64,000 bases of DNA from Candidatus Saccharimonadales bacterium (GCA_035510465.1 DATKHC010000001.1:70799-134798), one strand, 5' to 3'; positions 45,751-64,000 are shown, counted from the stretch's first letter. The notes: generated by a model not told the origin, from the sequence alone. Program-made: numbers and translations.

Positions 45751-45839
45751 GTACAAGAATTGGTTTTACTTGTTTATAAGTCTGGTTGCTTGTGGGTACT
45801 TAGCTTACTTATACACGTGTGTTGTTTTTAGTTTTTATA

Positions 45840-45876
45840 GGTTGTTTATACAAAGGTTGTTTATACAAAGGTTGTT
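45840..45876. repeat. 15-bp direct tandem repeat GGTTGTTTATACAAA, 2.5 copies, in the dnaA-dnaN spacer
   Basis: Read directly: ggttgtttatacaaa ggttgtttatacaaa ggttgtt. Each unit contains TTATACAAA (2 mismatches to a DnaA box). AT-rich tracts follow at about 45900-46000. Confidence 0.85.
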
Positions 45877-46021
45877 CTTTATTTTTCCTAAACTTATACC
45901 ACCCCCAAATAATTATAATAACAGTTTAATTAGTGTCTTTGTTCACATTAAACACAGGCCTATTAATAACAACTATGAAGTTTAATAATTTAATTACTTA
46001 TTGGTGGGGTTAGGAAAAAAC

Positions 46022-47116: not shown

Positions 47117-47142
47117 ACAAATATAAGAGGTGGTAAAACTCA

Positions 47143-48211: not shown

Positions 48212-48985
48212 CTAACTTCCAACACTAAGTATGCCTGAATCGAAAACTTGACTCCCTGAGGATGTATTGTGCAAGAACAATTCACCTGAATTTAAGCCAC
48301 TATACTGGAAGCTTGCGTTATAAACTGTCTCGTTAATCGAAACGGAAAAGTTTATAACAAAAATACCATCAGGGTTGATTGGGCCAGTAGTAATGCTACT
48401 TTGGTTAATAATAGCGCTACTGAGTTTTATGTTTGTAGTTTGGGCAAAAGCAGTCACCCCCTGTTCATAGTCTTGTACTTGCTGGGTTGATAGACCTTGG
48501 TTGATTAAGCCACTGGTATCACCAAAATCTGGCGGCTGGTCACTGGCAGTGGGTGGCTGCTGAAAAATGGTTTTTTGTTGACTAACAGGCAAGTTAGCAT
48601 ACGGTACGTATTTTGGTGTAAATGTGAAAACGAGGTTTTTTAGTTGTTTCCCAAGATTGTCCGTTACTGAGACAACAGTTAACGTATACCTAGTACTTTG
48701 GTTTAGGGGGTAACTTAAGCTCAAGACCAACGCTTTATAACTGACTTTTGTTGAAGTCACTATCGAAGGATTCGAAACAACAATCAAATTACTACTTGAA
48801 ATTGGTCGATTGAAACTAATCTTTATAGAAGAACTGTCTGTGGCAACATTACTCATGCCCGGATTAGTGCTAACTACATGAAAAGTTGAGGCGTAGTAAA
48901 TTAACCAAATTACCCAGAATACAACAAGTACGGCAGCCAACACGAAGACTATTCTTGTTCTTTTTTGAAATATCGAATGATTCAT
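48212..48985 (-). CDS. membrane-anchored protein with Ig-like (SbsA/Big_5-type) domain; last gene of the T4SS-like operon
   Basis: N-terminal TM (IVFVLAAVLVVFWVIWLIYY). This is followed by VVSTNPGMSNV...IKISFNRPI...YTLTVVSVTDNLGKQL, a typical bacterial Ig-like pattern. Confidence 0.5.
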   Translation of the reverse strand: MNHSIFQKRTRIVFVLAAVLVVFWVIWLIYYASTFHVVSTNPGMSNVATDSSSIKISFNRPISSSNLIVVSNPSIVTSTKVSYKALVLSLSYPLNQSTRYTLTVVSVTDNLGKQLKNLVFTFTPKYVPYANLPVSQQKTIFQQPPTASDQPPDFGDTSGLINQGLSTQQVQDYEQGVTAFAQTTNIKLSSAIINQSSITTGPINPDGIFVINFSVSINETVYNASFQYSGLNSGELFLHNTSSGSQVFDSGILSVGS

Positions 48986-48993
48986 AAGCCTCC

Positions 48994-50352
48994 TTAATCT
49001 GGCGACACATACCCAACAATGTTATCTGAATAATACCCCGAAAAAGTATCTAAAGACACCACAGAACCGCTAGCTGGGTGCTGTGAGCCGTATGCATAAT
49101 CCGGTGTACCATTTCCACCTTGATCACCACCAATATAATTCGATTCACCACCACTTGACGAAACAAAGATATTGATGTGATACCAAGGATTTGCCTGAGA
49201 GGGGTCGTAGTGTAGGGCTAAGTCGCCAGGTTGAGGAGTATAACCACTGCTCTCAGGATGCCAGTGGAAATTTTGATTTTGTTGACCAAGCACTTGAATA
49301 GAAACTACTGATGGTTGTCTCCAACCACCATCTAACCCGCCAGAAAATGGGTAGCCCGCTTGGTTATATATCCAACTCACGAAATCGGCGCACCATTCTT
49401 CATAATTATTATCGGTATATTTCAAAAACCCAGTAGCTGCGTAGATGAAGTCTGGATATGGTGAGTTATAATTAGGCTCGGCTTTCCATGTGGCGAGCTC
49501 TTTCTGGGCGTTGCAGACGATATTTTGGCGAGTTTGGCTTAAATTGGATGACGAAACAGAACTAGTAGTGCTAGTGGCCGTTGAGCTAGAGCAGTTGACA
49601 GTACTGCTGCTGCAATTCGAACTAGAACTAGTGGTTGATCCACTATTTCCCGATGCTCCACCGTATTTCGACAAAACTGACTGAGCATCACCTTCACGGT
49701 TCAGTAAGTATCCATCGTCTTGAGGAGGGTTGGTTACGCCTGAATTGGCAATGCCCCCTTCTTCTAACTCGGCTTCGACAAACTGAGTTGCTTGGTTTAA
49801 GTCGGTCATCCCCTGCAAGGATTTAACCCAGTCTTGTACTCCAGTAAGGCCAGTACCACCCATTTCACCCCAGACCATGGCTAGTTGGGTAGAAAGTTCG
49901 TAAATGGGGGAGGTAATCTTAAGACTTTGAGCAATTTGTATGGCCTTGCCGCCTGGCGTCCATTGGGCAATACCCCAACCTCCGCTACCAGCGTCATTTG
50001 GGTTGTTGCTATCGCCACCTATCTGCATTTCGGTTGGGTCTACGTGGGATTCATCCATAAGGTTGCCAACCACAGCCGACGCTTGAATCGGGCTTAAACC
50101 GTTTTGTATGAAAAAGTTATATGCTTGTTGTTCGTTATCATTGCCGGTTAGCGCTGTAACAGTAGCGCCTCCTGCACAGACAGCAGCAACAGCGGCGTCT
50201 GGGTCATAAAACGGAGTCTTTCCGAGGAATGAATTGTAATCAGTGCCCGTATAAGCAAGGGCTTGGCTAGAGGGTAAAATAATCAAACAAACAGCCACTA
50301 ACAATAGCAACACAGCACGTTGATAACGGTTAATTTGTCGCAGGCGATGCAC
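48994..50352 (-). CDS. secreted bifunctional peptidoglycan hydrolase: lysozyme-like (phage-tail-lysozyme-type) N-domain plus CHAP C-domain (VirB1 functional analogue)
   Basis: Signal peptide ending ALA-YTG. The N-domain has VVGNLMDESHVDP...GWGIAQWT. A Ser/Thr-rich linker follows. The CHAP Cys context is EWCADFVSWIYNQAGYPF, with a later His (GDLALHY). Confidence 0.72.
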   Translation of the reverse strand: MHRLRQINRYQRAVLLLLVAVCLIILPSSQALAYTGTDYNSFLGKTPFYDPDAAVAAVCAGGATVTALTGNDNEQQAYNFFIQNGLSPIQASAVVGNLMDESHVDPTEMQIGGDSNNPNDAGSGGWGIAQWTPGGKAIQIAQSLKITSPIYELSTQLAMVWGEMGGTGLTGVQDWVKSLQGMTDLNQATQFVEAELEEGGIANSGVTNPPQDDGYLLNREGDAQSVLSKYGGASGNSGSTTSSSSNCSSSTVNCSSSTATSTTSSVSSSNLSQTRQNIVCNAQKELATWKAEPNYNSPYPDFIYAATGFLKYTDNNYEEWCADFVSWIYNQAGYPFSGGLDGGWRQPSVVSIQVLGQQNQNFHWHPESSGYTPQPGDLALHYDPSQANPWYHINIFVSSSGGESNYIGGDQGGNGTPDYAYGSQHPASGSVVSLDTFSGYYSDNIVGYVSPD

Positions 50353-53011
50353 CGTTTTGTATGTCCGTTAATTGTTGAATTGTTGTGTCGTAGGCCTGTG
50401 CAACTCTCCACCTAAATACCAAATTACCAGGGTCATTATCGGGTGGACACACCGTGTCTATGGGGTCGTTGGTAGTTAAATTACACGGTGAACAAAGTCC
50501 AGTAGCTGCAGGTATTACATCTCCGTTTGAGTCTCGCTGAATTTGACCACTAGATAATAGGTCTCCCATTGTTTTGTTTATACTGTAACAAGTACTAGCA
50601 TATTTACCTGCTATAGAACTCTCTTGCCCGCTTTTGTCTAGAATCATTTGATTCTCAAGCGGTTGATAGCTTGGGTCAGTCTTTATTAGACTTTCCTCCG
50701 GAGCACTCCACCCCCACTGCACGATCCCATAGTCTTGATTGTCGATATTGGTGGAAGCTACTGCGTTTGCTCGTCCAACAAAAGGTAGTTTTGAAATCCA
50801 ACTCAGTGGCTGTAGGATATCTCCGATTTTTGAAAACATCGAACTAAAAAACGATTTAACGGGGATTGATGCAATGGTTGACACTACATGAGAAGTGAGT
50901 GAACTAGGATTACTTAGCGCAAAATACCTCTGGTAAGCGTTTTTCTTAGAGTTGAGAGAGGCAAGGTATGATGTGTCTTGTGAGCTTGTAGCTGCAACTT
51001 CCGAATTTGTGAGAGGCCTACCATAAAACTGCAATTGCTCTAATTGGTTAGCACTTAAATTATTACCAGCATCAGCATCATCAGCAAACTCAGCATTAGT
51101 AGATAGACCACTGTCTGTGGCACCCATTGATGAAACCACTATAAGCTTTGACAGCAAGGTTGCCCCGGCTATGGTAGCAGCCTTACCCAAAGTTTCCTTA
51201 GAAAAAGTACTGGTGAAGATATCCTTTAGAGCATCTTTATTTATTAATTGTTCGGAGAGCTCTGAGGCTATCTGAGATATTACTTCCTGGACACTTAATT
51301 CTGCGCCTTCTTCAGCAGTAGTTGCTCCACCACCAGTGAAGACGTCGGCTATGGCATTTCCCAGAACATTAACTGTAGCCACGGTTATAACTCCCTCAGG
51401 ACTAGTTATGGCTTGGCAGGACGGTTTTATGGCACTGTTAAATGAGCTGGCGATCCAACCAGGCAAACCAACTGAATTAAGGACTACATTGAATAAGCTA
51501 TATGTACCTGATGCGCCAGTTTGTGGACTTAATACTGAAGTGGTATCGATCGTTTGGCCACTGGCTCTCTCTTCCGGTATTGATTGATCTATATTGCCCA
51601 ATTTCCAATTAAAGGCACCTACAGCCTGAGCATTGGTATCACCAGCTTTTTGCTGATCACCGGCGCTATCCACTAAATAACCGGTTTTTTCCATTTCGGC
51701 ATCTTGAGCATCTATAGTTGAGCCAGAGTTATCGATTGAACCATCGTAAATAATGCATAGTGGCAGTGCGACAGCTTGGGCAGGCGATATTGCTCCGAGA
51801 ATATCATTCCACCAACTACTGGCCGTGTCGTTTGCTAAATCGGTGGCTACAACAGCAGGTTCCTCGCCGTCGTTGCTAACTATCGTTTCCAGACACTGCG
51901 CATTCTCCACGCAATTGGTTTCGTCAGCTGCGGCAGCTTTAGCGTCGCTGTTGTCTTGACTAACAGTTGAGCTACCATCAGCAGCTTGATCATCTATGGC
52001 TTTATAGGCGTCTTGTTCTAATTCCGCCTCAGCTTGGGTAGGAGTGTCTTTTGTGTAATCAGCTAGTTCTTGGGGCGTCCAGGCCTCTAGTTCTATACCT
52101 AGGCTCGGCAAAATCTCATCAACGTTGATCGGCCCTCTTATGACTGTGCTAATCCCATCGGTATTTGTAGATAGATCACTTTCAAAAGCTGACTGAGCTG
52201 AGCTTGGATTGCCTGTAAAATCAGCTGCTCCGTGCTCTTGTTGGGCAAAAGCGGCTGGGGTTTTTGCGGTGTCAGTAATAGCATCAGCCTGTCCATCTTG
52301 GGTAATCCCATTTAATTGGCCAGATGGACTATAGTCCAATTGCAATAAACCTTCATCAGGGTTGCTAACGCTGTCTGTTAGAGCGTTTTCAGTTGTTTGA
52401 GGATTGTAGGTTTCAATTTCTTTAAGTGTAGTGTCGCTTTGAGAATCAATTTCATTTTCAAGAGCAGCTTTTTCTTCAGGGCTGGCAGCTTCTATTGCCA
52501 GCTTCTCTTCAGTTATTTCGGCTGAGTCATCCGCAAAGCTTCTGGCGACTCTAGCGAATTGCCAATCGATGATATTTTGCTCAAACCCTGGTATTAAAAG
52601 TGAAGCCGCAAATATTAGGAGAATTGCAATTACCATAAGACCCCCTCCACCCCCTCCACCTATTAACAACAACTTGGTTTTCTTTGAACCGGTTTTTTTG
52701 ATCTTTGACTTCAACGCATTTTTTGCCTTTGATGAGTTATAAAGACCCCCACTAGTTGATGTACCAGATCCTTCTCCGTCCTCATCCTCAGACGAGGAGG
52801 TAAAAATTGCAGGCTCACCACCACCGGTTGTTGGCTTGTAGAAATTTGGGGAACCTACACCCTCTGTTTGGTTATCACTACCTTCGCCTGTTGCACTTGT
52901 TCTGTTTCCCTGGGGAGCCTCACCAGTTGCACTTGTTCTGTTTCCCGGGGAAGTTTCGTATTGCCTAATTTTATCTAGACCTACAGATTTTTTGTCTTCA
53001 TCATCATCCAT
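50330..53011 (-). CDS. large acidic single-pass membrane protein of unknown family, T4SS-locus associated
   Basis: 893 aa. The acidic low-complexity N-terminus has a 12-aa tandem duplication (GNRTSATGE x2). A Gly7 run and TM (LMVIAILLIFAASLLIPG) follow, then a 750-aa D/E/S/T/A-rich ectodomain. It overlaps the hydrolase gene by 23 nt. Confidence 0.5.
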   Translation of the reverse strand: MDDDEDKKSVGLDKIRQYETSPGNRTSATGEAPQGNRTSATGEGSDNQTEGVGSPNFYKPTTGGGEPAIFTSSSEDEDGEGSGTSTSGGLYNSSKAKNALKSKIKKTGSKKTKLLLIGGGGGGGLMVIAILLIFAASLLIPGFEQNIIDWQFARVARSFADDSAEITEEKLAIEAASPEEKAALENEIDSQSDTTLKEIETYNPQTTENALTDSVSNPDEGLLQLDYSPSGQLNGITQDGQADAITDTAKTPAAFAQQEHGAADFTGNPSSAQSAFESDLSTNTDGISTVIRGPINVDEILPSLGIELEAWTPQELADYTKDTPTQAEAELEQDAYKAIDDQAADGSSTVSQDNSDAKAAAADETNCVENAQCLETIVSNDGEEPAVVATDLANDTASSWWNDILGAISPAQAVALPLCIIYDGSIDNSGSTIDAQDAEMEKTGYLVDSAGDQQKAGDTNAQAVGAFNWKLGNIDQSIPEERASGQTIDTTSVLSPQTGASGTYSLFNVVLNSVGLPGWIASSFNSAIKPSCQAITSPEGVITVATVNVLGNAIADVFTGGGATTAEEGAELSVQEVISQIASELSEQLINKDALKDIFTSTFSKETLGKAATIAGATLLSKLIVVSSMGATDSGLSTNAEFADDADAGNNLSANQLEQLQFYGRPLTNSEVAATSSQDTSYLASLNSKKNAYQRYFALSNPSSLTSHVVSTIASIPVKSFFSSMFSKIGDILQPLSWISKLPFVGRANAVASTNIDNQDYGIVQWGWSAPEESLIKTDPSYQPLENQMILDKSGQESSIAGKYASTCYSINKTMGDLLSSGQIQRDSNGDVIPAATGLCSPCNLTTNDPIDTVCPPDNDPGNLVFRWRVAQAYDTTIQQLTDIQNGASPATN

Positions 53012-53069
53012 AAGTGGCCTTAGTTTTTTTGGCTATCATCGATCATTATTTTACTATAGGCCCCGGTCT

Positions 53070-54974
53070 TCACTGACGAAGCTCAATATCGCCGGATGGT
53101 TGGTTGAGCTCACCTTGTTCTGGAGCAGCTCCCTGGTTGACTGGGCCAGGAGTAGTACTAATTAGACCGGCCTCAGTCTGGCTGGCTACCACTTGGATAT
53201 GAACATGGTTCTGTCCAGCGAAAAACAAACCCTGGCCGATAGGGAACTGACTTAAACGTTTTGTTTCCTCTGAAGTTAGCTTAAAAACATTCGACAATAG
53301 ATCAACGGCTGATGGAGACTGTTTAAGCAACAATTGCATTGAAGCGTTGGCTACAATTGCCCGGCCCATTCTCGAGCCGATAAAATCTTCAACATCCTGG
53401 CTAATAGTGGTAATGCCTAAATTATATTTTCTGGCTCGTTTGGCCAGAGAAAACATAAAGTTAGCTGAATCTTCATATTTCATTAACTGCCAGGCCTCGT
53501 CGATTACTAAAAGTCGTTTTTTCTGATCAGTTTTAGTCTTATTCCAGATATAGTTCAACACTATATACATGGCTACAGGCCGCAGTTCATCCTCAAGGTC
53601 TCTAATATTAAAAACTACCATAGGGTTATTTATGTTGATGTTGCTTTGCTGAGAAAATATACCCGCAAATGTCCCCGAGGTATATTTACGTAACCTTTGG
53701 GCGAGTTGTGGCCCAGTGCCTCCCATGTGCAGTAAAACATCGTACAGGTCAGTAATGGTTGGTGGGGTACCCGTATGGGTGAGCGGATCGTTGCTAATGC
53801 CAGCGTTAGAGTAGGTTTGAATTAGGGCACTATCGAGGTCTGATTCCTCAACTGGGGACAAAGCCGGTACTACCGCACTAGTAGTGTTGCCCAACATCTG
53901 AACTTGAGCGCCTCCCATCATTAGCCTAAGTAGTCCATGAAGAGTAATAAGATTACTCCGCAATGCATTGTCAGCTTCTTCGGTGTCAATTACCTGTGGC
54001 AAATCAAACGGATTAATTCTGACACTGGAATTTAGACTAAGACGTACGTAAGCTCCTCCTACCGCCTCAGACATTCTTTGGTACTCATTTTCTGGGTCGA
54101 TGATAAACACCTCAGTCCCAAACATGATACTTCTAAGAGCTTCCAATTTTACGGCAAATGACTTGCCGGCTCCGGATTTGGCAAATACAACTGAGTTGCT
54201 ATTTTCTAAACTGAATCTATCAAACAAGACCAACCCCGAATTATGCATATTAACGCCGTATAAAATACCCTTGTCGTCGCTTAAATTAGCGCTAGTGAAA
54301 GGGAAACTAGTACTCAGTGCGCCAGTCCCGAAGTTACGCCTGATTTGTAGTTCGTCAGTTGCTTGTGGGATTGTGCTATTTAGGCCTTGTTCTTGTTGAG
54401 CGGAGGCGGGTTTAGAATAGATTAATTGCTGGCCGAGTAGTGTTTCGACCTTATGGCCAACAAATTCGAGCTCATCCAAGCTGCCTCCAAAAATAGTGAA
54501 ATAGAAACCGAGCCTGAAGAAATGTTCTTCGCCAACCTGAAGCTTGTCCCTCATTTCCTCAGCATCAGATATAGCGGCTTGTTTACCCGGATCTCTAACA
54601 CGACCTTTTTCGGCGTCAATTTGTAGCCCAGCTTCTAGCTGGCCAACCTTTTTTCTCAAGTTCTCTAAAACGACCTGAGCGTTGACGGGGTATATGAAGT
54701 GGGATATATCTATAACCTCATCTATGTTAATAAGTGGGCTTAACCAGCCAGTAGAAACTTGTCTTGGATACCCATAAACGTAGTAGCTACGGGCATATCG
54801 GGTGCCAATTTGGAAATAGTTGCTTTGAAAGTCTATAAAACTTGGAGCTATGAAATCACGAAGAGCAGTTATGCCTTTTTCAAATGCCTCATTTACCTCT
54901 TGCTGCTCTCTGAGGCGTTGTTCCTGAACAACGGTTACTGGGTCAATTCGCCTTTTTCTCCACCCTAAAGCCAT
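53070..54974 (-). CDS. virB4: type IV secretion VirB4/TrsE/PrgJ-family ATPase
   Basis: Walker A FAKSGAGKSF, IIDPENEY and Walker B RLLVIDEAWQLM. The N-domain pattern YYVYGYPRQVSTGWLSPL...DISHFIYP is typical of Gram-positive-type VirB4. Confidence 0.9.
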   Translation of the reverse strand: MALGWRKRRIDPVTVVQEQRLREQQEVNEAFEKGITALRDFIAPSFIDFQSNYFQIGTRYARSYYVYGYPRQVSTGWLSPLINIDEVIDISHFIYPVNAQVVLENLRKKVGQLEAGLQIDAEKGRVRDPGKQAAISDAEEMRDKLQVGEEHFFRLGFYFTIFGGSLDELEFVGHKVETLLGQQLIYSKPASAQQEQGLNSTIPQATDELQIRRNFGTGALSTSFPFTSANLSDDKGILYGVNMHNSGLVLFDRFSLENSNSVVFAKSGAGKSFAVKLEALRSIMFGTEVFIIDPENEYQRMSEAVGGAYVRLSLNSSVRINPFDLPQVIDTEEADNALRSNLITLHGLLRLMMGGAQVQMLGNTTSAVVPALSPVEESDLDSALIQTYSNAGISNDPLTHTGTPPTITDLYDVLLHMGGTGPQLAQRLRKYTSGTFAGIFSQQSNININNPMVVFNIRDLEDELRPVAMYIVLNYIWNKTKTDQKKRLLVIDEAWQLMKYEDSANFMFSLAKRARKYNLGITTISQDVEDFIGSRMGRAIVANASMQLLLKQSPSAVDLLSNVFKLTSEETKRLSQFPIGQGLFFAGQNHVHIQVVASQTEAGLISTTPGPVNQGAAPEQGELNQPSGDIELRQ

Positions 54975-54977
54975 ATG

Positions 54978-56003
54978 TTATAACCCCTCTACGTCTAAAT
55001 TAGGTTGAGGAGCCAAACCAGGGCCTTTAGTAACTACAGGGGGGTTTAAATCGTTAAAGTTCTTGAGTTGCTGTCTGACAGCTGTATCAGGGTTGTAGGT
55101 GTCATAGTAAAGTTCAATGAGCTCCTGTGTATCCAGAGGCAAGCCTTTGATATTACATTGAGCCAGCCCTCCTAAAATAGCCTCAACACGAGTTCTAAGC
55201 TCGTCCTTAGCCTTGGCTAAATCGGCCTCATTAATGACTACCGTTTTCTCTTTTTTCGAAAACAGAGCTCCAAGTCCTGTAAAAAAGTTCTTACTTTGAG
55301 CAATAGCTTGTTGAATGTTCTCAACAGGTGAGTAAGGAACGATTATATAAAAACCCTTGTCCATTATGTTGGTATGTTGAGACAAATCGACCATAAAATT
55401 AAGATAATCTTCCATTAAAACCGCCAGCAACATGTTGTCTTGTTCTAGTCGCATTTTGTCCAGTTTGTTTATGTACGGAGAAATATCCACACGCTCGGAG
55501 TGAATGAAAATCTGGATAGGGAAATACATTGCGTTCAAAAAACCCTGGTAGGCAAACTCAACAGCCTCTTTTTCGTCCGGGCTCATAAGGTCGAAATTAA
55601 TCGGTTTTACCATGATGACTGATCTATACGTGCCATCGTTTAAAATCACAATCCCATCTCTAATCTCGGCTATTTGTAGAGCATTTTGAGAACTGTTAGG
55701 GTTAACTTTTTTGGGTATTGGGGCAACTCCTTGCTGGGCTGGTGTGGGTGCGGGTGGCAATTGATTAGCAGAGGGTATAAAAGGTGGCTGCCCAGATACA
55801 GGGGGATTAAAGCTAGCACTGCTACCATTGCTAGGCTGATTAAGAATCTGGTTGGCCTGAGCTTGAAAATCAAAAGTTGGAGCTGCTGGTTCGGTTGGGT
55901 TGTTTGTAAAATCCTGCGCAGAATAAGTCCCATCGGCGTTTAGCACCGTTGGGTCTTGACCAGTTGTGTTACTGTTTGGATTTGTTTTAGGCTCAGGATT
56001 CAT
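54978..56003 (-). CDS. hypothetical T4SS-associated protein: Pro/Gln-rich N-terminus plus domain resembling a VirB4 N-terminal (non-ATPase) domain
   Basis: 341 aa. DGIVILNDGTYRSVIMVKPINFDLMSPDEKEAVEFAYQGFLNAMYFPIQIFIHSERVD resembles the N-terminus of Tn916-class VirB4 proteins, from memory. No Walker motifs. It ends 3 nt before virB4. Confidence 0.45.
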   Translation of the reverse strand: MNPEPKTNPNSNTTGQDPTVLNADGTYSAQDFTNNPTEPAAPTFDFQAQANQILNQPSNGSSASFNPPVSGQPPFIPSANQLPPAPTPAQQGVAPIPKKVNPNSSQNALQIAEIRDGIVILNDGTYRSVIMVKPINFDLMSPDEKEAVEFAYQGFLNAMYFPIQIFIHSERVDISPYINKLDKMRLEQDNMLLAVLMEDYLNFMVDLSQHTNIMDKGFYIIVPYSPVENIQQAIAQSKNFFTGLGALFSKKEKTVVINEADLAKAKDELRTRVEAILGGLAQCNIKGLPLDTQELIELYYDTYNPDTAVRQQLKNFNDLNPPVVTKGPGLAPQPNLDVEGL

Positions 56004-56050
56004 TGAGCTTACTATTGCCCCCTAAATGATCAATAACAATTGTAGCCAAA

Positions 56051-57115
56051 TTAGTGCAATGATACTACTACTTCTTCAGGGAGATCATCTTTAGGAGGAC
56101 GTTTCTTCGCTTCGCTTGCTATAGTTGCGACACTTTTATTATTATCAGCAGCTAAAGATGACACTTTTTTACTTTGGGCATCGCTTTGTTTAACCCCACT
56201 TTTTTTCAAGCCCGTATCAGTTTTTGATAGCGGCTCCAAAACATGAGTGTGACCGTAAGCTGGGTTAGGCCCTTGGTGTGCTTTCTTGATTTTTTCTGCT
56301 AACTGAGGAGTTATAGATGCGTTTTGAGTACTTTCGTCATCGTCATCACCCGGACGGTAAACAGTTAAGTCAGAAAAAGTTTGATGTCTAGGGTCAGATG
56401 CCTGTAGGGTAGTCGGTTGATTCATGAACCAATAGTCTTGTTTCGTTTGTTTGTTGTCTTTGGACTCGGGGTGGTCAACCAAAGTTTCATGATATTGCCG
56501 TTGTTCGTGTTCGTTTTGCTCAATAGCTTGAGCTAAATGCTGAGATGTCGGATTGGCGTTATCCAAAATATCGTCTTCTAAAGTCACATCATAGCTAGGG
56601 ACGTCCTGCGGTAGAGTACTTACATTTATTAAACGGTCAGAATCCTCCTCGGTAGACATATAGTCTGGTTGGTTATACATATTGACCCCAACGTTTTTTA
56701 CAGCCCAGCCTCTCGTATCAATTGTGTTTGCAAGCGCCTTTAAGCGGCTTTTCGCCTCTGTTTCCGAAAAGTTTTTAGTCATCTGCCGAGCAACAACAGC
56801 AGGAGCAGTAATCTTGACTAACTCTTGATAACCTCCTTGTTTCCAAATCCGTCTTCTGGGTTTCAGAAAAAACCGTACGCGGGCTAGAAGCCATATTTCG
56901 TTTGGTTGATCCCTGCCAAAGGGAATTGCTAGTGCCCCGAATAGGATAATGGGCAAAAACAGTGGAATGATGGCTACTATGCTGATTGAAGCAAGCTTGT
57001 AGTCTATGAACATCAAAACTACAGTTATGCCTGCGTAAATGAACTGACGCAGGGTCAGGGGCCCGAGTAGCTTATCCTCCGCTTCTATGTCTTGTATTAC
57101 TTTATAAGTTGCCAT
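56051..57115 (-). CDS. PrgI-family (VirB3-like) membrane protein with long C-terminal extension
   Basis: The N-terminal MATYKVIQDIEAEDKLLGPLTLRQFIYAG followed by two TM helices matches the PrgI pattern. The remaining 250 aa or so are polar and charged. Confidence 0.6.
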   Translation of the reverse strand: MATYKVIQDIEAEDKLLGPLTLRQFIYAGITVVLMFIDYKLASISIVAIIPLFLPIILFGALAIPFGRDQPNEIWLLARVRFFLKPRRRIWKQGGYQELVKITAPAVVARQMTKNFSETEAKSRLKALANTIDTRGWAVKNVGVNMYNQPDYMSTEEDSDRLINVSTLPQDVPSYDVTLEDDILDNANPTSQHLAQAIEQNEHEQRQYHETLVDHPESKDNKQTKQDYWFMNQPTTLQASDPRHQTFSDLTVYRPGDDDDESTQNASITPQLAEKIKKAHQGPNPAYGHTHVLEPLSKTDTGLKKSGVKQSDAQSKKVSSLAADNNKSVATIASEAKKRPPKDDLPEEVVVSLH

Positions 57116-57154
57116 TTTTTTAAACTTCTAATTCACGCTTAATTATATATAACC

Positions 57155-60127
57155 CTACGCCGGTGGTTCGGTAGGTGGTCCTTGTGGTTGTCCTGTGCCA
57201 CTGGCTATGTTCTGATCTGTAAACTGACCACCTCTACCTCTTAAGTTCTCTTTCTGATAATCCTCTATTTCCTTGGCCAAACCCATTATCCTATTGACAG
57301 CCTCTTCAGCAAATTGTTTAGTCTTAGGATCAGTATAAGCCCCAGGTGCGTAGGTCATAGCCAATTGTTCCAAAGAAGCTCGTCTTTCTCTGTCGGCTCT
57401 CTGGTTGATAATAACGACTTGATCTTGTGCTTCTTGCTGGGCCTGCGCCTGAACCGCGGGAGGCTGATTTGCAGCAGCAGCAACTATTTGTTGAGCTACT
57501 CGTTGACCCTCAGCAGTAGCATTTGCCTTTACGTTGCCAACGCGTTCGGCAATACCTTCCATGGATTCTGCAACGGCGTCAAATGAAGTACCATCCTTAC
57601 GATATTCAGTGTACGGCTTAAGACTGTTTGTCACGCTTGGGCCTCCTCTAGCCAAATTGGCACCAAGTCTTTGGCGTGCGTCGGTTGGTTTTTTATCATA
57701 TAAGGTTTGGTAACTACTGACGACATTGTTTTTCAGTTCCGAAGTGTAAGTTATGTAGTTTCCAGCGTTCTTTGAGGTGAAGATTAGATCTCCCCAAGCC
57801 GCGGCCTTGGCTGATCTATCTTGCTGCGAGGTTCCGTACATATCATTTAGTTTTTCGAGGGAAGCACCAGATAGTTTACCAAAACTCGCATTTACCTTCA
57901 TGGCACCTAGGATCATATCTTTTCGGCCAGCATATTTAGCATACATGGCTAAACCATCGGCCTTGTCAGTTTCGCCTGCATCTCTCAGCTCTTTAACACG
58001 ATTTTGTAGTGATCCTAGAGTACCGCCGTGATTTATGAACTCATTTCCTGACCCATCGTCTAACAATCCCTCTTGTTGGAGAGTCTTCGCGGCTTCGTTG
58101 ATACTCCCTGCCATACCGGTAGATAAGGCGGACCGACCTTTCAGGGCGTGCTTTCCTGGGAGTAGTGCTGAAGGCTGAGTAACATATGCGAGCCCAGCGT
58201 TTAAACCCCTGTTGTATCTCTCGTTAAATCTCTGACCCCTCTTAAACTTATTAATACCTGGGATCTTGGCTCCAGGGTACCTGTTTTCTCTCTTCATCTT
58301 ACCCCAGTTTTCGGCCAATTTCCTCTTTCTAAAGTTATTAAGTGGCTTATTGGCGGCTCGCTGCAAATGTGTAGCCAGACTACCAGTTGCGGACAATAAA
58401 CCCCCAGCCCACTTAAACGTAAACGGAATCATAAAGTATGGTCCGAAATAGGCGATGATGGCAACCATCTCTTGAACTAGGCCAGTATTACCCCCCGAGG
58501 TAGTTACAGCCGCAAACACTCGACCAATCGCGATTATACCGGAGATGATTGGGAACATTAGAAGGGCTTTGCTTAGATTTTCCCACCACAATTTCCATAC
58601 TCTCTGGGTGCCGGGAAGGATATACATGGCAATAGCAATGGGTGCAAAAATTGCTAGGAATACTACAAGAATCTCTCGAAAGGTTAACAGAACAAAGGCC
58701 AAAATTACCGCTATAGCAGCAGTCAAAACAATGCTCAAGATACCAATAAGACTCAAACCTACCAAACTGGCTGCGCTCAGCAGAACCAGTGCTGTCGAGC
58801 CAGTTTGACCGATTTGTATCGTACCAATGGACGTAAACGGTGTATAAATAAGTGCTCTAATACCTTGCCCCAGTCCATCAGAAACCTGAATCAATACCTG
58901 TATTATTTGCCAGGACAGGGAAATGCCAATAACAGCAATTAACATACGAGGCAGCACTTTTTTAATGGTGTAGGCATCAAAAGCTTCGTAACCCAAAGCC
59001 TGTGATATAACCATTACTAAAGCCGCTATAACGACTATGGCAATTGCGAGAGTTCGTAGACTTTCCCAAGCTTTATAGAAACCGTTACTCCCGGCTTGCT
59101 GGGCAGGTGTGTTTGATTGCCCGGCACAATTTGGGTTCTGTGACCCAGCTATCGTGCCGTTAAAGTACTGACAGCCATTTATATCTAACATACCAACTAT
59201 TGCGCTGTCCAAAGTGCCGATTAACTTAGATGCAGTATCGACGATCGGACAAAACAACCAAGTCAGAGGATTAAAATCAACGACACAATTCAATGCAGGT
59301 CCGGATTCGGCTTGCGCACTGCTTGGAGTACCAGAAGGAGGGCCAGGTGCGGTTAAGGAAGCAAGGGTATAGGCGCCATTTTGAACTGAGCCACCATTTG
59401 GGCAGTTATAGTTGTATTCTGCCGCTACAGTAGCCGTTAGACCACTCGGTAGAGTTCCATATCCATGACCACAATTTTGATAAACCGAGATGCTTGGCGG
59501 AGTATAGTTCTCGTCGGCATTAGAGTTGCTGAAAGTTGGGCTACCCCATTCTTGGGAATCTGAAGGTTCACCCGGATAGCATGGTACGTAGTATGGTCCA
59601 ACTTGACCAATGGTAAAACCACTAGAATCTACAACTGAAAATGTCCAATCGTTTTGGGGTGTGTCTGTACATGCAGCCAGAGATCCAGCCGCAGTGCCAC
59701 TGCCACTGGTGGCTTCATAAAAGGTTCTATCATCCCCCGTAACAATAATCTCGTAGGTATTTGTTAGCGGTTCAGTAACTGGTGTTTCATTACAATGTCC
59801 TTCTTGTTTAGGTGGGCAGGTAGGCGTTACTTGCTGGGTTGTTACTTGGTTGCCGCTTACTGACAGAGTCCCAGTTGAATTACCGCCATCGGGACCAGGG
59901 GAAGGAGCAGCCTGCCGAGTTGCGATTACAGTGACCCCAGAACCGCTGACAGTCGAGGGATTAAGATGAATGAAAAACTCCTCATAGTTAGAAGGAACAC
60001 CTACAGGAGTCTGAACAGGAGTATCACCCAAAACTTTATGATTGCCCAGGAACAAGAAGAACCCCATGGCAACTAATCCAGTCAAGAAGACAATATTTAA
60101 ACTGATTTTCAATTTGTGTTTTAACAT
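57155..60127 (-). CDS. giant polytopic VirB6/TrbL-like channel protein (PrgH/TcpH/ConG analogue) with Cys-containing ectodomain and large C-terminal cytoplasmic domain
   Basis: 990 aa. The signal/anchor is followed by a roughly 320-aa Cys-, Gly-, Pro- and Thr-rich N-domain. A block of 6-7 TM helices (aa 355-590) is Gly/Ala/Ile-rich like TrbL/VirB6. A 400-aa hydrophilic tail ends the protein. It is the first gene of the operon. Confidence 0.55.
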   Translation of the reverse strand: MLKHKLKISLNIVFLTGLVAMGFFLFLGNHKVLGDTPVQTPVGVPSNYEEFFIHLNPSTVSGSGVTVIATRQAAPSPGPDGGNSTGTLSVSGNQVTTQQVTPTCPPKQEGHCNETPVTEPLTNTYEIIVTGDDRTFYEATSGSGTAAGSLAACTDTPQNDWTFSVVDSSGFTIGQVGPYYVPCYPGEPSDSQEWGSPTFSNSNADENYTPPSISVYQNCGHGYGTLPSGLTATVAAEYNYNCPNGGSVQNGAYTLASLTAPGPPSGTPSSAQAESGPALNCVVDFNPLTWLFCPIVDTASKLIGTLDSAIVGMLDINGCQYFNGTIAGSQNPNCAGQSNTPAQQAGSNGFYKAWESLRTLAIAIVVIAALVMVISQALGYEAFDAYTIKKVLPRMLIAVIGISLSWQIIQVLIQVSDGLGQGIRALIYTPFTSIGTIQIGQTGSTALVLLSAASLVGLSLIGILSIVLTAAIAVILAFVLLTFREILVVFLAIFAPIAIAMYILPGTQRVWKLWWENLSKALLMFPIISGIIAIGRVFAAVTTSGGNTGLVQEMVAIIAYFGPYFMIPFTFKWAGGLLSATGSLATHLQRAANKPLNNFRKRKLAENWGKMKRENRYPGAKIPGINKFKRGQRFNERYNRGLNAGLAYVTQPSALLPGKHALKGRSALSTGMAGSINEAAKTLQQEGLLDDGSGNEFINHGGTLGSLQNRVKELRDAGETDKADGLAMYAKYAGRKDMILGAMKVNASFGKLSGASLEKLNDMYGTSQQDRSAKAAAWGDLIFTSKNAGNYITYTSELKNNVVSSYQTLYDKKPTDARQRLGANLARGGPSVTNSLKPYTEYRKDGTSFDAVAESMEGIAERVGNVKANATAEGQRVAQQIVAAAANQPPAVQAQAQQEAQDQVVIINQRADRERRASLEQLAMTYAPGAYTDPKTKQFAEEAVNRIMGLAKEIEDYQKENLRGRGGQFTDQNIASGTGQPQGPPTEPPA

Positions 60128-60413: not shown

Positions 60414-61112
60414 ATGAAAGTTATCAGAAGCACACTAAACTTATTTGCAAAAACCTCTTTTTTGAATTCAATTTCGTTAATCCTGGCCCTAGTTTTTGGG
60501 ATATCGATATTTCAAGGGCATACTTTTGCCGCATCTGGAGGAGTGTGCCATGACAGTTTTTCGAACATTTCCTACAAGTGTGGCACAGCGGGCATTAACC
60601 CCTGTAGTTTTATTCCGATACAGGGGCAAAGTCCAAGCGGTCAGGGTAATTGTGACCCTTCGGCGTGTGCAAGCCAATCATGTCCTTCAGCCTCAATTTG
60701 GACATTTGACCCAACTCAGTGTTATCTTCTGTCCACTGTGCCCAACAGTTCTGCTGAGCAGTGGGTAGGTGGTCAAAATTGCTCAGGCGCAGACTACACA
60801 ACTAATGTTCAATCTACCACCATACCATCCAACGTAACTCCACCGGATGCAGCAGCTAACTGTAGTACTAATTGTAACTTGATAACTGAATACTTAAATC
60901 CAATAATCAATTTCTTGTCTGCGGCAGTTGGCATAGTGGTCGTTATGATGATCGTTGTTGGCGGTATTCAATATTCGTCATCCGGCGGTAACCCGCAATC
61001 CGCAGCAGCCGCTAAGAAAAGAATAGCCAATGCTATTTTAGCCGCTTTTGCCTTTTTGTTTTTGTATGGCTTTCTACAGTTTATAGTTCCCGGGGGACTT
61101 TTTAATGGCTAG
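60414..61112 (+). CDS. VirB2/TrbC-like T4SS pilin paralogue 1, with extended 10-Cys ectodomain
   Basis: Signal peptide ending TFA-AS. A 130-aa head with 10 Cys is followed by a C-terminal TM-loop-TM hairpin (IVVVMMIVVGGIQYSSSGGNPQS...AILAAFAFLFLYGF). Confidence 0.65.
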   Translation: MKVIRSTLNLFAKTSFLNSISLILALVFGISIFQGHTFAASGGVCHDSFSNISYKCGTAGINPCSFIPIQGQSPSGQGNCDPSACASQSCPSASIWTFDPTQCYLLSTVPNSSAEQWVGGQNCSGADYTTNVQSTTIPSNVTPPDAAANCSTNCNLITEYLNPIINFLSAAVGIVVVMMIVVGGIQYSSSGGNPQSAAAAKKRIANAILAAFAFLFLYGFLQFIVPGGLFNG

Positions 61113-61134
61113 GCCAAAGGACTAAGATATAGAC

Positions 61135-61551
61135 GTGGATATTTTTTCTTCAATCGCACCAGCAATTAAACTGTTTGCTGACAGTTGCGGAGGTAGTAGT
61201 ACTACCTTCTTTGGTTTACCAGTTTGGTATAAATACCTAGCGATTAAAGCGAGTTCGACCAGCGCTTGTAACTTCAACGGCTTTAGTTTGTTCAACGGAA
61301 GTAATTTTGCCCCAGATAATATACTGCTAATTCTCTTAGCCGTACTTGACGACCTATTAATTATTGCTGGCATTGTTGCGGTAGTCTTTGTTATATATGG
61401 TGGCGTTCGCTATATCCTAAGTAGCGGAGAGCCAGAGAACGTAAAAGCAGCTCAATCAACTATCCTCAATGCGTTAATAGGGCTAGTAATTAGCGCAGTA
61501 GCTGCTACTCTTGTGAATTACATTGGTTTTGCCTTTGGTGGCGGAAAATAA
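61135..61551 (+). CDS. VirB2/TrbC-like T4SS pilin paralogue 2 (no obvious cleavable signal peptide)
   Basis: GTG start. 2 Cys in the N-terminal part. The motif FFGLPVWYKYL is present. Hairpin IVAVVFVIYGGVRYILSSGEPENVKAAQSTILNALIGLVISAV. Confidence 0.6.
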   Translation: MDIFSSIAPAIKLFADSCGGSSTTFFGLPVWYKYLAIKASSTSACNFNGFSLFNGSNFAPDNILLILLAVLDDLLIIAGIVAVVFVIYGGVRYILSSGEPENVKAAQSTILNALIGLVISAVAATLVNYIGFAFGGGK

Positions 61552-61561
61552 AGGTTGTAAA

Positions 61562-62029
61562 GTGGCTAAATTCAAGACCCAATCACCGAAAAGACGACAC
61601 AAACTACCCGTACTGGTACTGTTATTTATTTTTGGGCTAACGCTGATGTTTGGCCGGGCTGCCTCAACCTCCGCGCAATCACTGTCTCTAGGAGATAAGT
61701 TGCTAAATGTAGCACAAACGAGTCCTCCTTGTTCCTGCTCTTCAAGTTCTACAAGCGTAAACCTCTGCTCATTACCTGGAAGTTGCACGGACCTAAGTAA
61801 CCCATCAAACTCAGCAGCTGCTATAAAAACTGCTCTAAACATACTGTTCTCGATACTTGGAGCCATAGCACTACTTATAGTAACCATAGCTGGTTTCAGG
61901 TATGTAATTTCTAGAGGTGAGCCCCAAGAAGTTTCCAAGGCTAAAGACACCATCCTCTACGCCTTAATTGGGCTGGTGGTCTGCATGGCCGCTCTAGCAA
62001 TAGTTAACTTTGTAGCGGGTAACGTATGA
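61562..62029 (+). CDS. VirB2/TrbC-like T4SS pilin paralogue 3
   Basis: The frame is open from 61523, but the GTG at 61562 gives a proper signal peptide (KRRHKLPVLVLLFIFGLTLMFGRAASTSA-QS). 4-Cys head. Hairpin LLIVTIAGFRYVISRGEPQEVSKAKDTILYALIGLVV. Confidence 0.65.
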   Translation: MAKFKTQSPKRRHKLPVLVLLFIFGLTLMFGRAASTSAQSLSLGDKLLNVAQTSPPCSCSSSSTSVNLCSLPGSCTDLSNPSNSAAAIKTALNILFSILGAIALLIVTIAGFRYVISRGEPQEVSKAKDTILYALIGLVVCMAALAIVNFVAGNV

Positions 62030-62439
62030 AGCGTAGACTAAACAAGTTTTTATCTGCAATAACACTAAGCCTATTTCTTGCGGCTCCCCTTATAGCATTG
62101 CCAGCAAAAATGGCTTTGGCGGACCCAAACGCTCAATTTAATCAAATCTGCTCTGACCCCAACGCCGCTAGTTCACCTATCTGTAAAGATGCACCCAGCA
62201 CTGATCCTCTGACAAACGGGGGCAGTGGCATCCTAGATGACGTTACTAACGTAATCGCCTTAGTTGCAGGTGTAGCAGCCGTTATTATGATCATCGTGGG
62301 CGGGCTAATGTATGTATTGTCTGGCGGTGAGTCCCAAAGGGTAAATTCGGCTAAAAACACTATACTTTTTGCTATCATTGGAATTGTCGTTATAGTTTTA
62401 GCAAGAGCACTAATTGTCTATGTAGTAACACAGGTATAA
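62026..62439 (+). CDS. VirB2/TrbC-like T4SS pilin paralogue 4
   Basis: Signal peptide ending MALA-DP. 2-Cys loop ICSDPNAASSPIC. Hairpin VIMIIVGGLMYVLSGGESQRVNSAKNTILFAIIGIVV. ATGA overlap with paralogue 3. Confidence 0.7.
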   Translation: MKRRLNKFLSAITLSLFLAAPLIALPAKMALADPNAQFNQICSDPNAASSPICKDAPSTDPLTNGGSGILDDVTNVIALVAGVAAVIMIIVGGLMYVLSGGESQRVNSAKNTILFAIIGIVVIVLARALIVYVVTQV

Positions 62440-62441
62440 AA

Positions 62442-62846
62442 ATGAAATTTAAATTAAAAATTTTCCTAGTGGCAGCAGCAGTGAGCGTACTTAGTTTTAT
62501 TGGCTTAAGCCCGTCAGTTGCACATGCAAGTACTTTCACAAGCTCATCAGGTCAGACAATTTGTCAAGGAGTTGGGGAGATTGATAGCTCAGGTAATTGT
62601 GATGCTGCGGGTGGTACATCCGACCTGAGTAAAATTATAGGTACAGTCCTAAATATATTGAGCCTAGTCGTAGGTATAGCAGCGGTTGTGATGATAATTG
62701 TGGCGGGTTTACGATATATATTATCGGGAGGTGAATCACAAAACGTTAACAATGCCAAAAACACTTTAATTTACGCTGTAGTTGGGCTGGTAGTTGTAGC
62801 CCTAGCTCAAATAATCGTTCATTTTGTAATTAATAGCGTGAGTTAA
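62442..62846 (+). CDS. VirB2/TrbC-like T4SS pilin paralogue 5
   Basis: Signal peptide ending VAHA-ST. 2-Cys loop ICQGVGEIDSSGNC. Hairpin VVMIIVAGLRYILSGGESQNVNNAKNTLIYAVVGLVVVALAQIIVHFV. Confidence 0.7.
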   Translation: MKFKLKIFLVAAAVSVLSFIGLSPSVAHASTFTSSSGQTICQGVGEIDSSGNCDAAGGTSDLSKIIGTVLNILSLVVGIAAVVMIIVAGLRYILSGGESQNVNNAKNTLIYAVVGLVVVALAQIIVHFVINSVS

Positions 62847-62958
62847 AGCCACATGATTTTTAATAAACCTACACCTGAGCTTAAGCTTTTTTAACTTGAG
62901 CTTGGCAAGTAGCTATGATATAAGTAATTACGATATCTCAAGAAAGGCTAGCTTAAAA

Positions 62959-63390
62959 ATGATTAAACGAATAAAAGTTTTGTTAACTACAGTAGGTATG
63001 ATAAGTCTGATGCTATCACCTATGGCTATACCAGTTGCTGTACACGCCGATACCATAACACCAGGAAATATAGCTTGTGGCGCTGACGGTAATTTCACCC
63101 CAGGGGCTGATTGTAGTAACGGTAATACCGCAACTAGCTCAATCGACGGAATAATTCAATTTACTCTAAACATCTTTTCGTTAATTGTTGGTATCGTCGC
63201 TGTCATTATGATTATAGTTGGTGGTCTTAAGTACATTCTCTCTGGCGGTGAGTCTTCCAAAACGGCTGGCGCTAAAGATACCATACTATTCGCTATCATC
63301 GGGTTAGTAGTTGTGGCTCTAGCTCAAATAATTGTTCACTTTGTGCTCTCAAATGTGGCTAACGGTACTAATGGCACTGGCGGAAGCTAA
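62959..63390 (+). CDS. VirB2/TrbC-like T4SS pilin paralogue 6
   Basis: The ATG at 62959 (AGAAAGG upstream) gives a signal peptide ending AVHA-DT. 2-Cys loop ACGADGNFTPGADC. Hairpin VIMIIVGGLKYILSGGESSKTAGAKDTILFAIIGLVVVALAQIIVHFV. Confidence 0.7.
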   Translation: MIKRIKVLLTTVGMISLMLSPMAIPVAVHADTITPGNIACGADGNFTPGADCSNGNTATSSIDGIIQFTLNIFSLIVGIVAVIMIIVGGLKYILSGGESSKTAGAKDTILFAIIGLVVVALAQIIVHFVLSNVANGTNGTGGS

Positions 63391-63422
63391 ACAAAATCTT
63401 TTAGAACGAAGGCTAATTTAAT

Positions 63423-63456
63423 AAGCCCCTTGGAAATCAAGGGGCTTAATTTATTT
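63423..63456. terminator. bidirectional rho-independent terminator between the pilin array and hsp20
   Basis: Perfect 9-bp stem AAGCCCCTT (63423-63431) / AAGGGGCTT (63439-63447) with a 7-nt loop, followed by the T-rich AATTTATTTGTCTTTT. It lies between convergent genes. Confidence 0.8.
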
Positions 63457-63468
63457 GTCTTTTAGTGT

Positions 63469-63945
63469 TTATAGAACCTGGATCTTCTTAACAGTTTCTT
63501 GCTTAACTTTAGTAAAGCTGATGGTGAGAACGCCGTCTTTTAGAACTGCTTCAACCTCATCTTCTTTAACTGGGACTGGTAGGGCAATGCTACGAGAGAA
63601 TTCACCCCAGTAACATTCCTGGACAAAATAGTTCTCTACGTCTTCCTCGTTTCCAGCCGAAAGCGTACCTCTGATACTTAGAGTGTTATCTGCAATCGAA
63701 ATATCCAAATCACTCTTGTTAACCCCAGCAGTTCTGGCTTTAACAACTAGCTTTTCTCTAGTCTCGTAAACGTCTACCGCTAACTGACCAGGCACAGTAT
63801 CGTCCTCTTCCCACTCTTCAGCAGCTACAGCAGTAGTTTCTTCTTCACTACCCTCTGGAGCTAAATCCTCATCTCCCAGGAAAGCAGCCGTTAATTCGTC
63901 TTCTTCCATTAGTAGGTCATCATCGTCACGGCTCTTGCGTGCCAT
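63469..63945 (-). CDS. hsp20: small heat-shock protein (Hsp20/alpha-crystallin family) with acidic N-terminal extension
   Basis: Alpha-crystallin domain (LAVDVYETREKLVVKARTAGV...LSIRG...FSRSIALPVPV...AVLKDGVLTISFTK). The ATG at 63945 is preceded by GGAGGG. Confidence 0.88.
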   Translation of the reverse strand: MARKSRDDDDLLMEEDELTAAFLGDEDLAPEGSEEETTAVAAEEWEEDDTVPGQLAVDVYETREKLVVKARTAGVNKSDLDISIADNTLSIRGTLSAGNEEDVENYFVQECYWGEFSRSIALPVPVKEDEVEAVLKDGVLTISFTKVKQETVKKIQVL

Positions 63946-64000
63946 AAGTGCTACCCTCCGCAAATATCAAATAAATTTTAGAATTTGCAATTTTTGTTAC

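Follow-up and report, generated by a model that had tools for sequence, protein, structure and literature searches.

The closest described relative of the locus analysed here is the six-pilin type IV secretion system (T4SS) array SEML1_0014-0019 of the cultured Saccharibacterium Southlakia epibionticum ML1 (Wang et al., 2023, Cell; PMC10633639). Our locus is a tandem array of six VirB2-like pilin genes in a 64-kb stretch of DNA from an uncultured Candidatus Saccharimonadales bacterium (DATKHC010000001.1:70799-134798, analysed at full length and called the window below). According to Table S1 of the ML1 work, SEML1_0013 is a VirB6-like gene on the minus strand, SEML1_0014-0019 are six plus-strand PF18895 genes of 312-558 nucleotides (nt), and SEML1_0020, coding for Hsp20, is located on the minus strand and was called essential; the locus adjoins dnaA (PMC10633639). 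In transposon sequencing (Tn-seq) all of SEML1_0014-0019 were called GD/ES/ES, i.e., growth-defective and then essential (PMC10633639). A seventh, non-essential “pilin” gene, SEML1_0024, lies a few genes past the ML1 array on the opposite strand (PMC10633639).

Arrays of this kind were surveyed by Quiñonero-Coronel et al. (2025, Microb Genom; PMC12102498), who found 441 arrays, each composed of 2-11 VirB2-like genes, among 383 assemblies of Patescibacteria. The arrays consist of PF18895/PF04956 genes near virB4 with a mean intra-array identity of about 25%, are abundant in Saccharimonadia and are often close to dnaA. Their variability was read as possible host-range or antigenic versatility (PMC12102498).

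The array in the window fits this description. Six consecutive open reading frames (ORFs) occupy positions 60414-63390 of the plus strand; their lengths in the mechanical ORF list are 232, 138, 168, 137, 134 and 164 amino acids (aa). Gene 4 starts within an ATGA overlap with gene 3 and ends 2 nt before gene 5, and the widest gap of the array, 112 nt, precedes gene 6. These coordinates and gaps agree with the sequence-only reading of this DNA, which had reported six tightly spaced plus-strand genes, some with ATGA overlaps. Like the ML1 locus, the window contains dnaA-dnaN-recF, a minus-strand T4SS core ending in VirB6, six PF18895 genes and a convergent Hsp20 gene. The size pattern is also shared, including the short third gene and the larger gap before the sixth one (83 nt in ML1). 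Unlike ML1, the window belongs to a different, uncultured environmental lineage, the head of its gene 1 product is unusually large and contains 10 Cys, and its gene 3 may carry a signal peptide. We consider it very probable that the six genes code for VirB2-like pilins of a T4SS and that their layout is the one published for Saccharibacteria. Six-pilin arrays as such are already known, and the window is a further instance, coming from an environmental metagenome-assembled genome. The novelty implied by the sequence-only reading, which took a single VirB2 gene as the norm, is outdated for this lineage (PMC10633639; PMC12102498; PMC12857230), so that reading is best described as a correct rediscovery.

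All six products match PF18895 (T4SS_pilin) with 38.3-56.7 bits (E 1.4e-9 to 2.7e-15). As every one of them exceeds the gathering score of this family (26.6 bits), a chance pattern is excluded; PF18895 is also matched by all 94 aligned relatives. PF04956 (TrbC/VirB2, gathering score 27.9 bits) is matched by the gene 5 product with 28.0 bits and by the products of genes 2, 4 and 6 with 14.8-19.3 bits, while genes 1 and 3 gave no match to it at E<=0.1. Among the family members, 75 of 94 match PF04956 at E<=1e-3, the best at 1.4e-7. These scores appear to support homology at the superfamily level, not clean family membership. NF045849 (Mbov_0395 pilin-like conjugal transfer protein) is also matched by all six products (E 1.7e-4 to 1.6e-10). 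Gene 3 reaches 40.5 bits against its cut-off of 40 bits and the other five score 21-32 bits, so that we treat this relation as remote homology, not as membership.

Weak sub-threshold matches to DctQ, Cyt_bd_oxida_II and DUF6112 could be taken to mean that the six products are holins, bacteriocin-immunity proteins or other small membrane proteins that are unrelated to pilins and resemble them in hydrophobicity. We regard this as extremely improbable, because all six products lie above the curated PF18895 threshold, the synteny with the T4SS core is present in every genome examined, and a Pfam scan of the neighbours found no lysis or bacteriocin genes nearby. A holin or immunity protein identity was ruled out by the PF18895 scores, this conserved synteny and the 75 of 94 relatives matching PF04956.

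A C-terminal module is common to the six products: their MAFFT alignment contains seven invariant columns (G, G, Y, S, G, A, A), and the N-terminal parts do not align. Hairpins of the window paralogues are 21-63% identical (39% on average; the highest value is that of genes 5 and 6), and their heads can hardly be aligned at all. The shared module proposed from the sequence thus stands as far as these columns go, but the products of genes 1 and 2 lack its AK(N/D)T loop motif. An AlphaFold2 model of the gene 5 product, built with 94 sequences, has two helices (residues 60-94 and 99-133, pLDDT about 90) and a low-confidence head. Taken with the matches of all six products to PF18895 and of 75 of the 94 relatives to PF04956, and with the T4SS cluster context, this two-helix hairpin bears out the proposed identity of the proteins as VirB2/TrbC-like hairpin pilins.

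Canonical VirB2/TrbC/TraA pilins (Agrobacterium VirB2, RP4 TrbC, F TraA) resemble the window proteins in having a signal peptide, a hairpin and a short polar loop, in being encoded beside VirB3 and VirB4, and in profile similarity to PF04956. In contrast to the canonical systems, the host is a monoderm lacking an outer-membrane core complex, and the single pilin gene is replaced by six differentiated paralogues. Two of the window classes have no signal peptide, and the heads are extended and carry disulfide loops.

Relatives of the locus were collected by a scan with a four-sequence VirB4 alignment, which yielded 80 Saccharimonadales loci at the species level, the VirB4 of which shares 77-84% identity with that of the window; a genome scan with the 990-aa VirB6-like protein alone gave zero relatives. 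Pilin units were located in these loci with a hairpin hidden Markov model run over six-frame ORFs. Arrays lying fully inside the locus have six units in 35 cases, seven in 6 cases and nine in one case. For the comparison of classes we used 38 six-unit arrays (window included), took hairpins only and recorded the best hit in another genome; class-by-class orthology was established within this 38-species clade.

The best cross-genome hit occupies the same position in 38/38 cases for classes 1, 2 and 6, in 37/38 for class 3 and in 35/38 for class 4. Best hits of class 5, which is close to class 6, are divided between positions 5 and 6. The order in arrays with more units is 1-2-3-4-5-6-6(-6-6), and truncated arrays are prefixes of 1-2-3-4-5-6; the extra copies are always class 6, so that its copy number ranges from 1 to 4. 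The same-position best hits and the array order indicate that the paralogues are ancient, that their order is fixed and that only class 6 changes in copy number. Class 6 is also the most conserved one, with an orthologue hairpin identity of 0.59-0.64.

Each class has features of its own. Signal peptides were judged by a heuristic based on n/h/c regions and AxA-type sites, not by SignalP; cleavage sites are marked below by a slash. The class 1 pilin of the window has a signal peptide (…TFA/AS), a 115-aa head with 10 Cys followed by the hairpin, and a C-terminal tail of the class-specific “IVPGGLF” type. Class 1 orthologues are signal-peptide-like in 37/38 cases, and their heads are long and variable (44-226 aa, counted stop-to-stop), with 2-11 Cys and an even number of them in 32/38. 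The class 2 pilin, the NCBI name of which is “pilin” (P0121), has no signal peptide, and its head contains 2 Cys and a conserved F-G-L-P-x-W-Y-K-Y-L motif. Its orthologues, signal-peptide-like in 8/38 cases, have two Cys in 29/38 and a near-invariant P-x-W-Y-x-Y-L motif. Class 3 heads are short and often have no Cys, and only the window copy (1/38) is signal-peptide-like.

Classes 4, 5 and 6 are more uniform. In the window each combines a signal peptide (…ALA/DP, …AHA/ST and …VHA/DT, respectively) with a single disulfide-type loop (C-x11-C in class 4, C-x12-C in classes 5 and 6) and the hairpin, which in class 6 is followed by a short Gly/Asn/Thr tail. Orthologues are signal-peptide-like in 38/38, 38/38 and 37/38 cases and have two Cys in 35/38, 34/38 and 37/38 cases, respectively. 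Cys pairs are accordingly kept in 29-37 of 38 orthologues in classes 2, 4, 5 and 6. Our recount of head Cys in the window (10, 2, 4, 2, 2 and 2 for genes 1-6) is identical to the even numbers given before. Signal peptides had been assigned to five of the six products. We find them in genes 1, 4, 5 and 6 and none in gene 2; as the case of gene 3 depends on the start codon, the count becomes four certain signal peptides and one uncertain.

From GTG 61562 the gene 3 product would have 155 aa and a signal-peptide-like N-terminus. From TTG 61700, which has AGGAG 6 nt upstream, it would have 109 aa and no signal peptide, and this shorter N-terminus aligns with the signal-peptide-less orthologues (37/37; 97-111 aa). 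The 148-nt in-frame upstream extension of class 3 (61552-61699) includes the signal-peptide-like segment KRRHK-LPVLVLLFIFGLTLMF-GRAASTSA/QS and is present in the window copy only, the other 37 orthologues being without it. It may be a newly acquired signal peptide or non-coding sequence that would be skipped by the AGGAG-TTG start at 61700. An antisense ORF at 61483-61953 (minus strand, 156 aa) was rejected as a gene-calling artefact of Logan, the caller of which missed the plus-strand class 3 pilin gene.

In five species, not all of which are mutual nearest relatives by VirB4 similarity, classes 2 and 3 form a single fused ORF. The same fusion is found in 9 of 120 class 2 homologues (P0137, P0141-P0145, P0147, P0181, P0223), and no other fusion type was seen among these 120 homologues and the loci. 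The fusions probably arose more than once. A 2+3 fusion is topologically coherent only if both termini of each hairpin are outside; an AlphaFold2 model of the fusion protein P0147 shows four long helices, which does not establish how the hairpins pack. As a Rosetta-stone type of evidence, the fusion hints at a position of classes 2 and 3 next to each other after assembly. P0137 carries the label “Bacteroidia bacterium”, and one of the related loci (L019, DATLRC010000014.1), labelled “Candidatus Dormiibacterota”, has VirB4 81% identical to that of the window; both contigs are probably mis-binned Saccharimonadales.

Heads evolve differently from hairpins. Mean pairwise identity of orthologues is 0.14-0.33 for heads (29-47 aligned columns) and 0.40-0.59 for hairpins, so the claim that heads are less conserved than hairpins is true for orthologues as well as for paralogues. 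In a pair of loci with 92% identical VirB4, hairpins are 36-68% and heads 17-38% identical, pointing to a much faster evolution of the pilins than of VirB4. The closest non-self match to the gene 5 product in the protein collection is only 59% identical. Since synonymous divergence (dS) is saturated, the ratio of nonsynonymous to synonymous divergence (dN/dS) is not estimable for most pairs. The only estimable pair, L053/L056 (VirB4 97% identical), has a dN of 0.118 in heads and 0.033 in hairpins at a dS of about 1.6, which gives dN/dS of about 0.08 and 0.02, respectively, within the limits set by dS saturation. Heads therefore look about 2-4 times faster than hairpins, yet purified rather than diversified, with their Cys pairs kept. 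To call them “hypervariable” was right as far as their faster evolution is concerned and overstated in view of the low dN/dS in this pair and the retained disulfide framework.

These rates bear on the question of whether the array is an interchangeable specificity or antigenic repertoire, i.e., a set of alternative major pilins, deployed singly or in mixtures, that would vary the surface or the host range. Such a role was proposed for the VirB2 arrays of Bartonella and Anaplasma and suggested for Patescibacteria by Quiñonero-Coronel et al. (PMC12102498). The dissimilar heads of the paralogues, the 2-4 times faster heads of the orthologues, the divergence of pilins far outpacing that of VirB4, the variable copy number of class 6 and the discussion of this role in the published survey (PMC12102498) would all suit it. 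However, positional orthology is one-to-one and the order is fixed over 38 species, with an identical layout in ML1; classes 1-4 show no turnover; and the architecture is not the same in all classes, as seen from their signal peptides, the length of their heads, the motifs specific to one class and the 2+3 fusion. Moreover, all six genes were depleted in the ML1 Tn-seq, implying that they are not redundant (with a caveat for polarity), and head dN/dS of the closest pair does not point to diversifying selection, with the reservation that dS is saturated. A repertoire is, in our opinion, improbable. The sequence-only reading had offered either a major/minor pilin set or a specificity or antigenic repertoire; the former fits, while the latter is at odds with the fixed orthology, the copy number change confined to class 6 and the low dN/dS.

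The arrays of Anaplasma phagocytophilum and Bartonella are also composed of tandem divergent VirB2 paralogues in or near a T4SS locus (PMC12102498). In contrast to these arrays, which are regarded as variable repertoires for immune evasion or host interaction, the classes of the window are ancient and their order is fixed, and each paralogue is probably required, judging by the ML1 Tn-seq. We also depart from the interpretation given in PMC12102498, as the fixed classes, the duplication restricted to class 6, the 2+3 fusions and the promoter-like motif inside the array are in favour of a heteromeric, non-redundant set.

This promoter-like motif is located in the spacer before gene 6. The spacer is conserved, with a median length of 73 nt, and the remaining junctions of the arrays are tight. 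TTG-N20/21-TATAA is found in the gene 5-gene 6 spacer of 36 out of 38 species against 0.24 expected from shuffles. It sits 26-38 nt upstream of the sixth pilin gene across species (L004, L007, L008, L011-L088), and both strands of the whole window contain only six such motifs. This suggests that class 6 may be transcribed separately, probably at a higher level. In the mechanical ORF list the start codon of gene 6 is the TTG of this sigma-70-like motif. As TTG 62896 represents the -35 box of a conserved promoter-like motif, the start of gene 6 is almost certainly ATG 62959, which was also selected by an independent gene caller and is preceded by a GAAAGG Shine-Dalgarno sequence at 62942-62947.

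Overall, the locus can be considered, with somewhat better than balanced confidence, to be the VirB2-like pilin set of a chromosomal monoderm-type T4SS of Candidatus Saccharimonadales, with a heteromeric assembly. To the heteromeric major/minor model taken by itself we assign about an even chance. The data demonstrate the family, the hairpin architecture, the T4SS context and the deep positional conservation of six distinct classes; extracellular assembly of a tube and a division of roles among its subunits are what we infer. Each protein would insert into the cytoplasmic membrane as a helical hairpin with the N-terminal head and the C-terminus outside, the head being stapled by a single disulfide loop in most classes. 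The VirB4/VirB6/VirB3 machine would then extract the six non-redundant classes into one heteromeric pilus-like tube needed by the epibiont for host exploitation. Because class 6 is the most conserved class, the only duplicated one and the one with its own promoter-like motif, it may be the major shaft subunit together with its close relative class 5. Classes 1-4 would be specialised subunits, each present as a single copy. Among them, class 1 has a large and variable head rich in Cys and is the most promising candidate for a distal element in contact with the host; classes 2 and 3, being usually signal-peptide-less and sometimes fused, are probably an adjacent pair, perhaps at the membrane-proximal end. 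As a functional analogy, a shared hydrophobic assembly module with divergent exposed parts is also known from type IV pili and type II secretion pseudopili, and we infer a similar division into an abundant shaft subunit and single-copy specialised subunits; the fold and the assembly machinery of those systems are unrelated to the window pilins.

Several points weigh against this picture. No pilus made of these proteins has yet been seen or purified, and the solved thin filaments of Mycosynbacter amalyticus consist of unrelated Pam pilins. The Pfam cut-off of TrbC/VirB2 is reached by one gene out of six, by a margin of 0.1 bit. Foldseek with the AlphaFold2 model against the PDB gave no match at E<=0.001, VirB2/TraA pilins included; the sole conjugative pilus matched was archaeal 8dfu (rank 43, E=5.1, target-normalised template modelling score 0.62). 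A helical hairpin is too simple a structure to discriminate, which makes structure searches uninformative. A profile built from the pilin alignment gave only chance matches (MacB, cytochrome bd) among PDB sequences. The likeness to ML1 is one of synteny and gene sizes, not of residues compared one by one, and the Tn-seq essentiality of upstream genes in ML1 may partly reflect polar effects. Class 6 is a candidate for the major subunit by conservation, duplication and the promoter motif, not by expression, and the roles proposed for classes 1-3 are tentative deductions.

Alternatively, the six proteins may be membrane-embedded channel components forming no pilus, in line with the lack of any reported filament made of them. 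In this case the hairpins would form or line part of a translocation channel or stalk with VirB6 and VirB3, and the heads would be short wall-spanning or periplasm-like domains. Monoderm T4SSs are generally without pili (PMC12102498), all six proteins match the Mycoplasma family NF045849, for which no pilus is documented, classes 2 and 3 have no signal peptide, and their fusion makes a four-helix membrane protein. On the other hand, the homology to pilus-forming VirB2/TrbC and the cleavable signal peptides and disulfide-stapled heads of classes 1, 4, 5 and 6, which suit surface display, speak against a channel, as does, circumstantially, the tube about 9 nm wide observed in a related organism. 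We consider a pure channel function plausible, although rather unlikely.

Mbov_0395 (NF045849) of a Mycoplasma integrative and conjugative element is, like the window pilins, a small hairpin protein encoded beside VirB4 in a monoderm system of the MPF-FATA (mating-pair formation) type. It is single-copy and part of a mobile element, unlike the window array. The literature describes monoderm MPF-FATA systems as having no VirB2 homologues; judging by the NF045849 matches, VirB2-like hairpin proteins may exist in them.

Returning to the heteromeric tube, cryo-electron tomography of the Saccharibacterium M. amalyticus revealed a lance or conduit with a width of 8.6-9.0 nm, a length of 61-70 nm and a density at its tip that bridges to the host (PMC11880426). 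This tube offers circumstantial support to the idea of a pilus. A width of 8.6-9.0 nm is typical of conjugative pili. We tentatively speculate, considering it less likely than the general heteromeric model, that the six classes co-assemble in a defined order into a barb-tipped lance/conduit of the M. amalyticus type, about 9 nm wide. In such a structure the shaft would be built from class 6 (together with class 5), the tip or barb would come from class 1, and classes 2 and 3 would act as an adaptor close to the membrane.

The array is embedded in a cluster that is a monoderm-type, MPF-FATA-related T4SS (Table 1). This cluster (48212-60127) directly follows dnaA-dnaN-recF (44356-48201), the presumed replication origin, as reported for other Patescibacteria. 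The TrsD/TraC-like protein resembles a split-off N-terminal domain of VirB4. Homologues of the 893-aa protein (859-913 aa) adjoin VirB4 in L004 and L007. A scan of the neighbouring genes revealed no homologue of VirB5, no cyclase and no relaxase, and the whole window contains neither tRNA genes nor Rfam families at threshold. The linkage of the pilins with the T4SS core is kept at every related locus examined, and the arrangement of VirB6 (minus strand), six pilins (plus strand) and Hsp20 (minus strand) is repeated in four other contigs (L004, L007, L008 and one further). In these four contigs and in S. epibionticum ML1, hsp20 is the invariant convergent neighbour of the array. A functional link, e.g., a chaperone for hairpin proteins, is possible.

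Table 1. Features of the pilin array and the adjoining T4SS cluster; positions are those of the window unless a locus is named.
Feature	Position	Strand	Evidence or remark
Cell-wall hydrolase (lysozyme + CHAP), VirB1/PrgK-like role	48994..50352	-	PF18013 Phage_lysozyme2 E=4.8e-20; CHAP E=3.1e-5
Conserved protein, 893 aa	50330..53011	-	no Pfam match; homologues beside VirB4
VirB4-like ATPase, 634 aa	53070..54974	-	PF19044 P-loop_TraG E=1.4e-26 + AAA_10
TrsD/TraC-like protein, 341 aa	54978..56003	-	PF26593 TraC-like; weak NCBIfam TrsD + VirB4 matches
PrgI/VirB3-like protein, 354 aa	56051..57115	-	PF12666 PrgI E=1.3e-9
VirB6/TrbL-like polytopic membrane protein, 990 aa, extended, divergent from array	57155..60127	-	PF19590 TrbL_3
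Class 1 pilin, 232 aa	60414..61112	+	PF18895 E=1.4e-9
Class 2 pilin, 138 aa, GTG start	61135..61551	+	PF18895 E=6e-12
Class 3 pilin, start uncertain	61562..62029 (alternative starts 61523, 61700)	+	PF18895 E=1.7e-14
Class 4 pilin, 137 aa	62026..62439	+	PF18895 E=7.7e-10
Class 5 pilin, 134 aa	62442..62846	+	PF18895 E=2.7e-15
Promoter-like motif (TTGAGC, 17 nt, TATAAG)	62896..62924	+	34 nt upstream of gene 6 ATG
Class 6 pilin, 143 aa from ATG 62959	62959..63390	+	PF18895 E=2.7e-12
Intrinsic-terminator-like hairpin closing the array	63422..63448	+	12-bp stem, 6 GC pairs, T-rich tail
Hsp20, convergent flank of the array	63469..63963	-	PF00011 E=2.7e-19
Class 2+3 fusion ORFs	L011:1873-2523, L015:771-1430, L055:2192-2887, L066:535-1293, L068:2223-2927	-	

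Before the Saccharibacterial T4SS, no T4SS had been reported to be essential for its own carrier; among monoderm systems, it is also the only one described with VirB2-like pilins (PMC12857230; PMC11665869). To this our analysis adds six fixed classes, a duplication affecting class 6 only, the 2+3 fusion, a conserved internal promoter-like motif, and conserved disulfide loops on faster-evolving heads. The combination of these class-level features favours one heteromeric structure with specialised subunits over a variable repertoire, and the class-level anatomy makes the heteromeric-pilus hypothesis directly testable. The lance/conduit model, if true, would provide the first example of a VirB2 pilus that is heteromeric and positionally differentiated, as well as of a T4SS pilus in a monoderm. 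The pilus would also be a feeding tube on which the epibiotic lifestyle depends, perhaps for the uptake of lipids or nucleotides not synthesised by these bacteria themselves.

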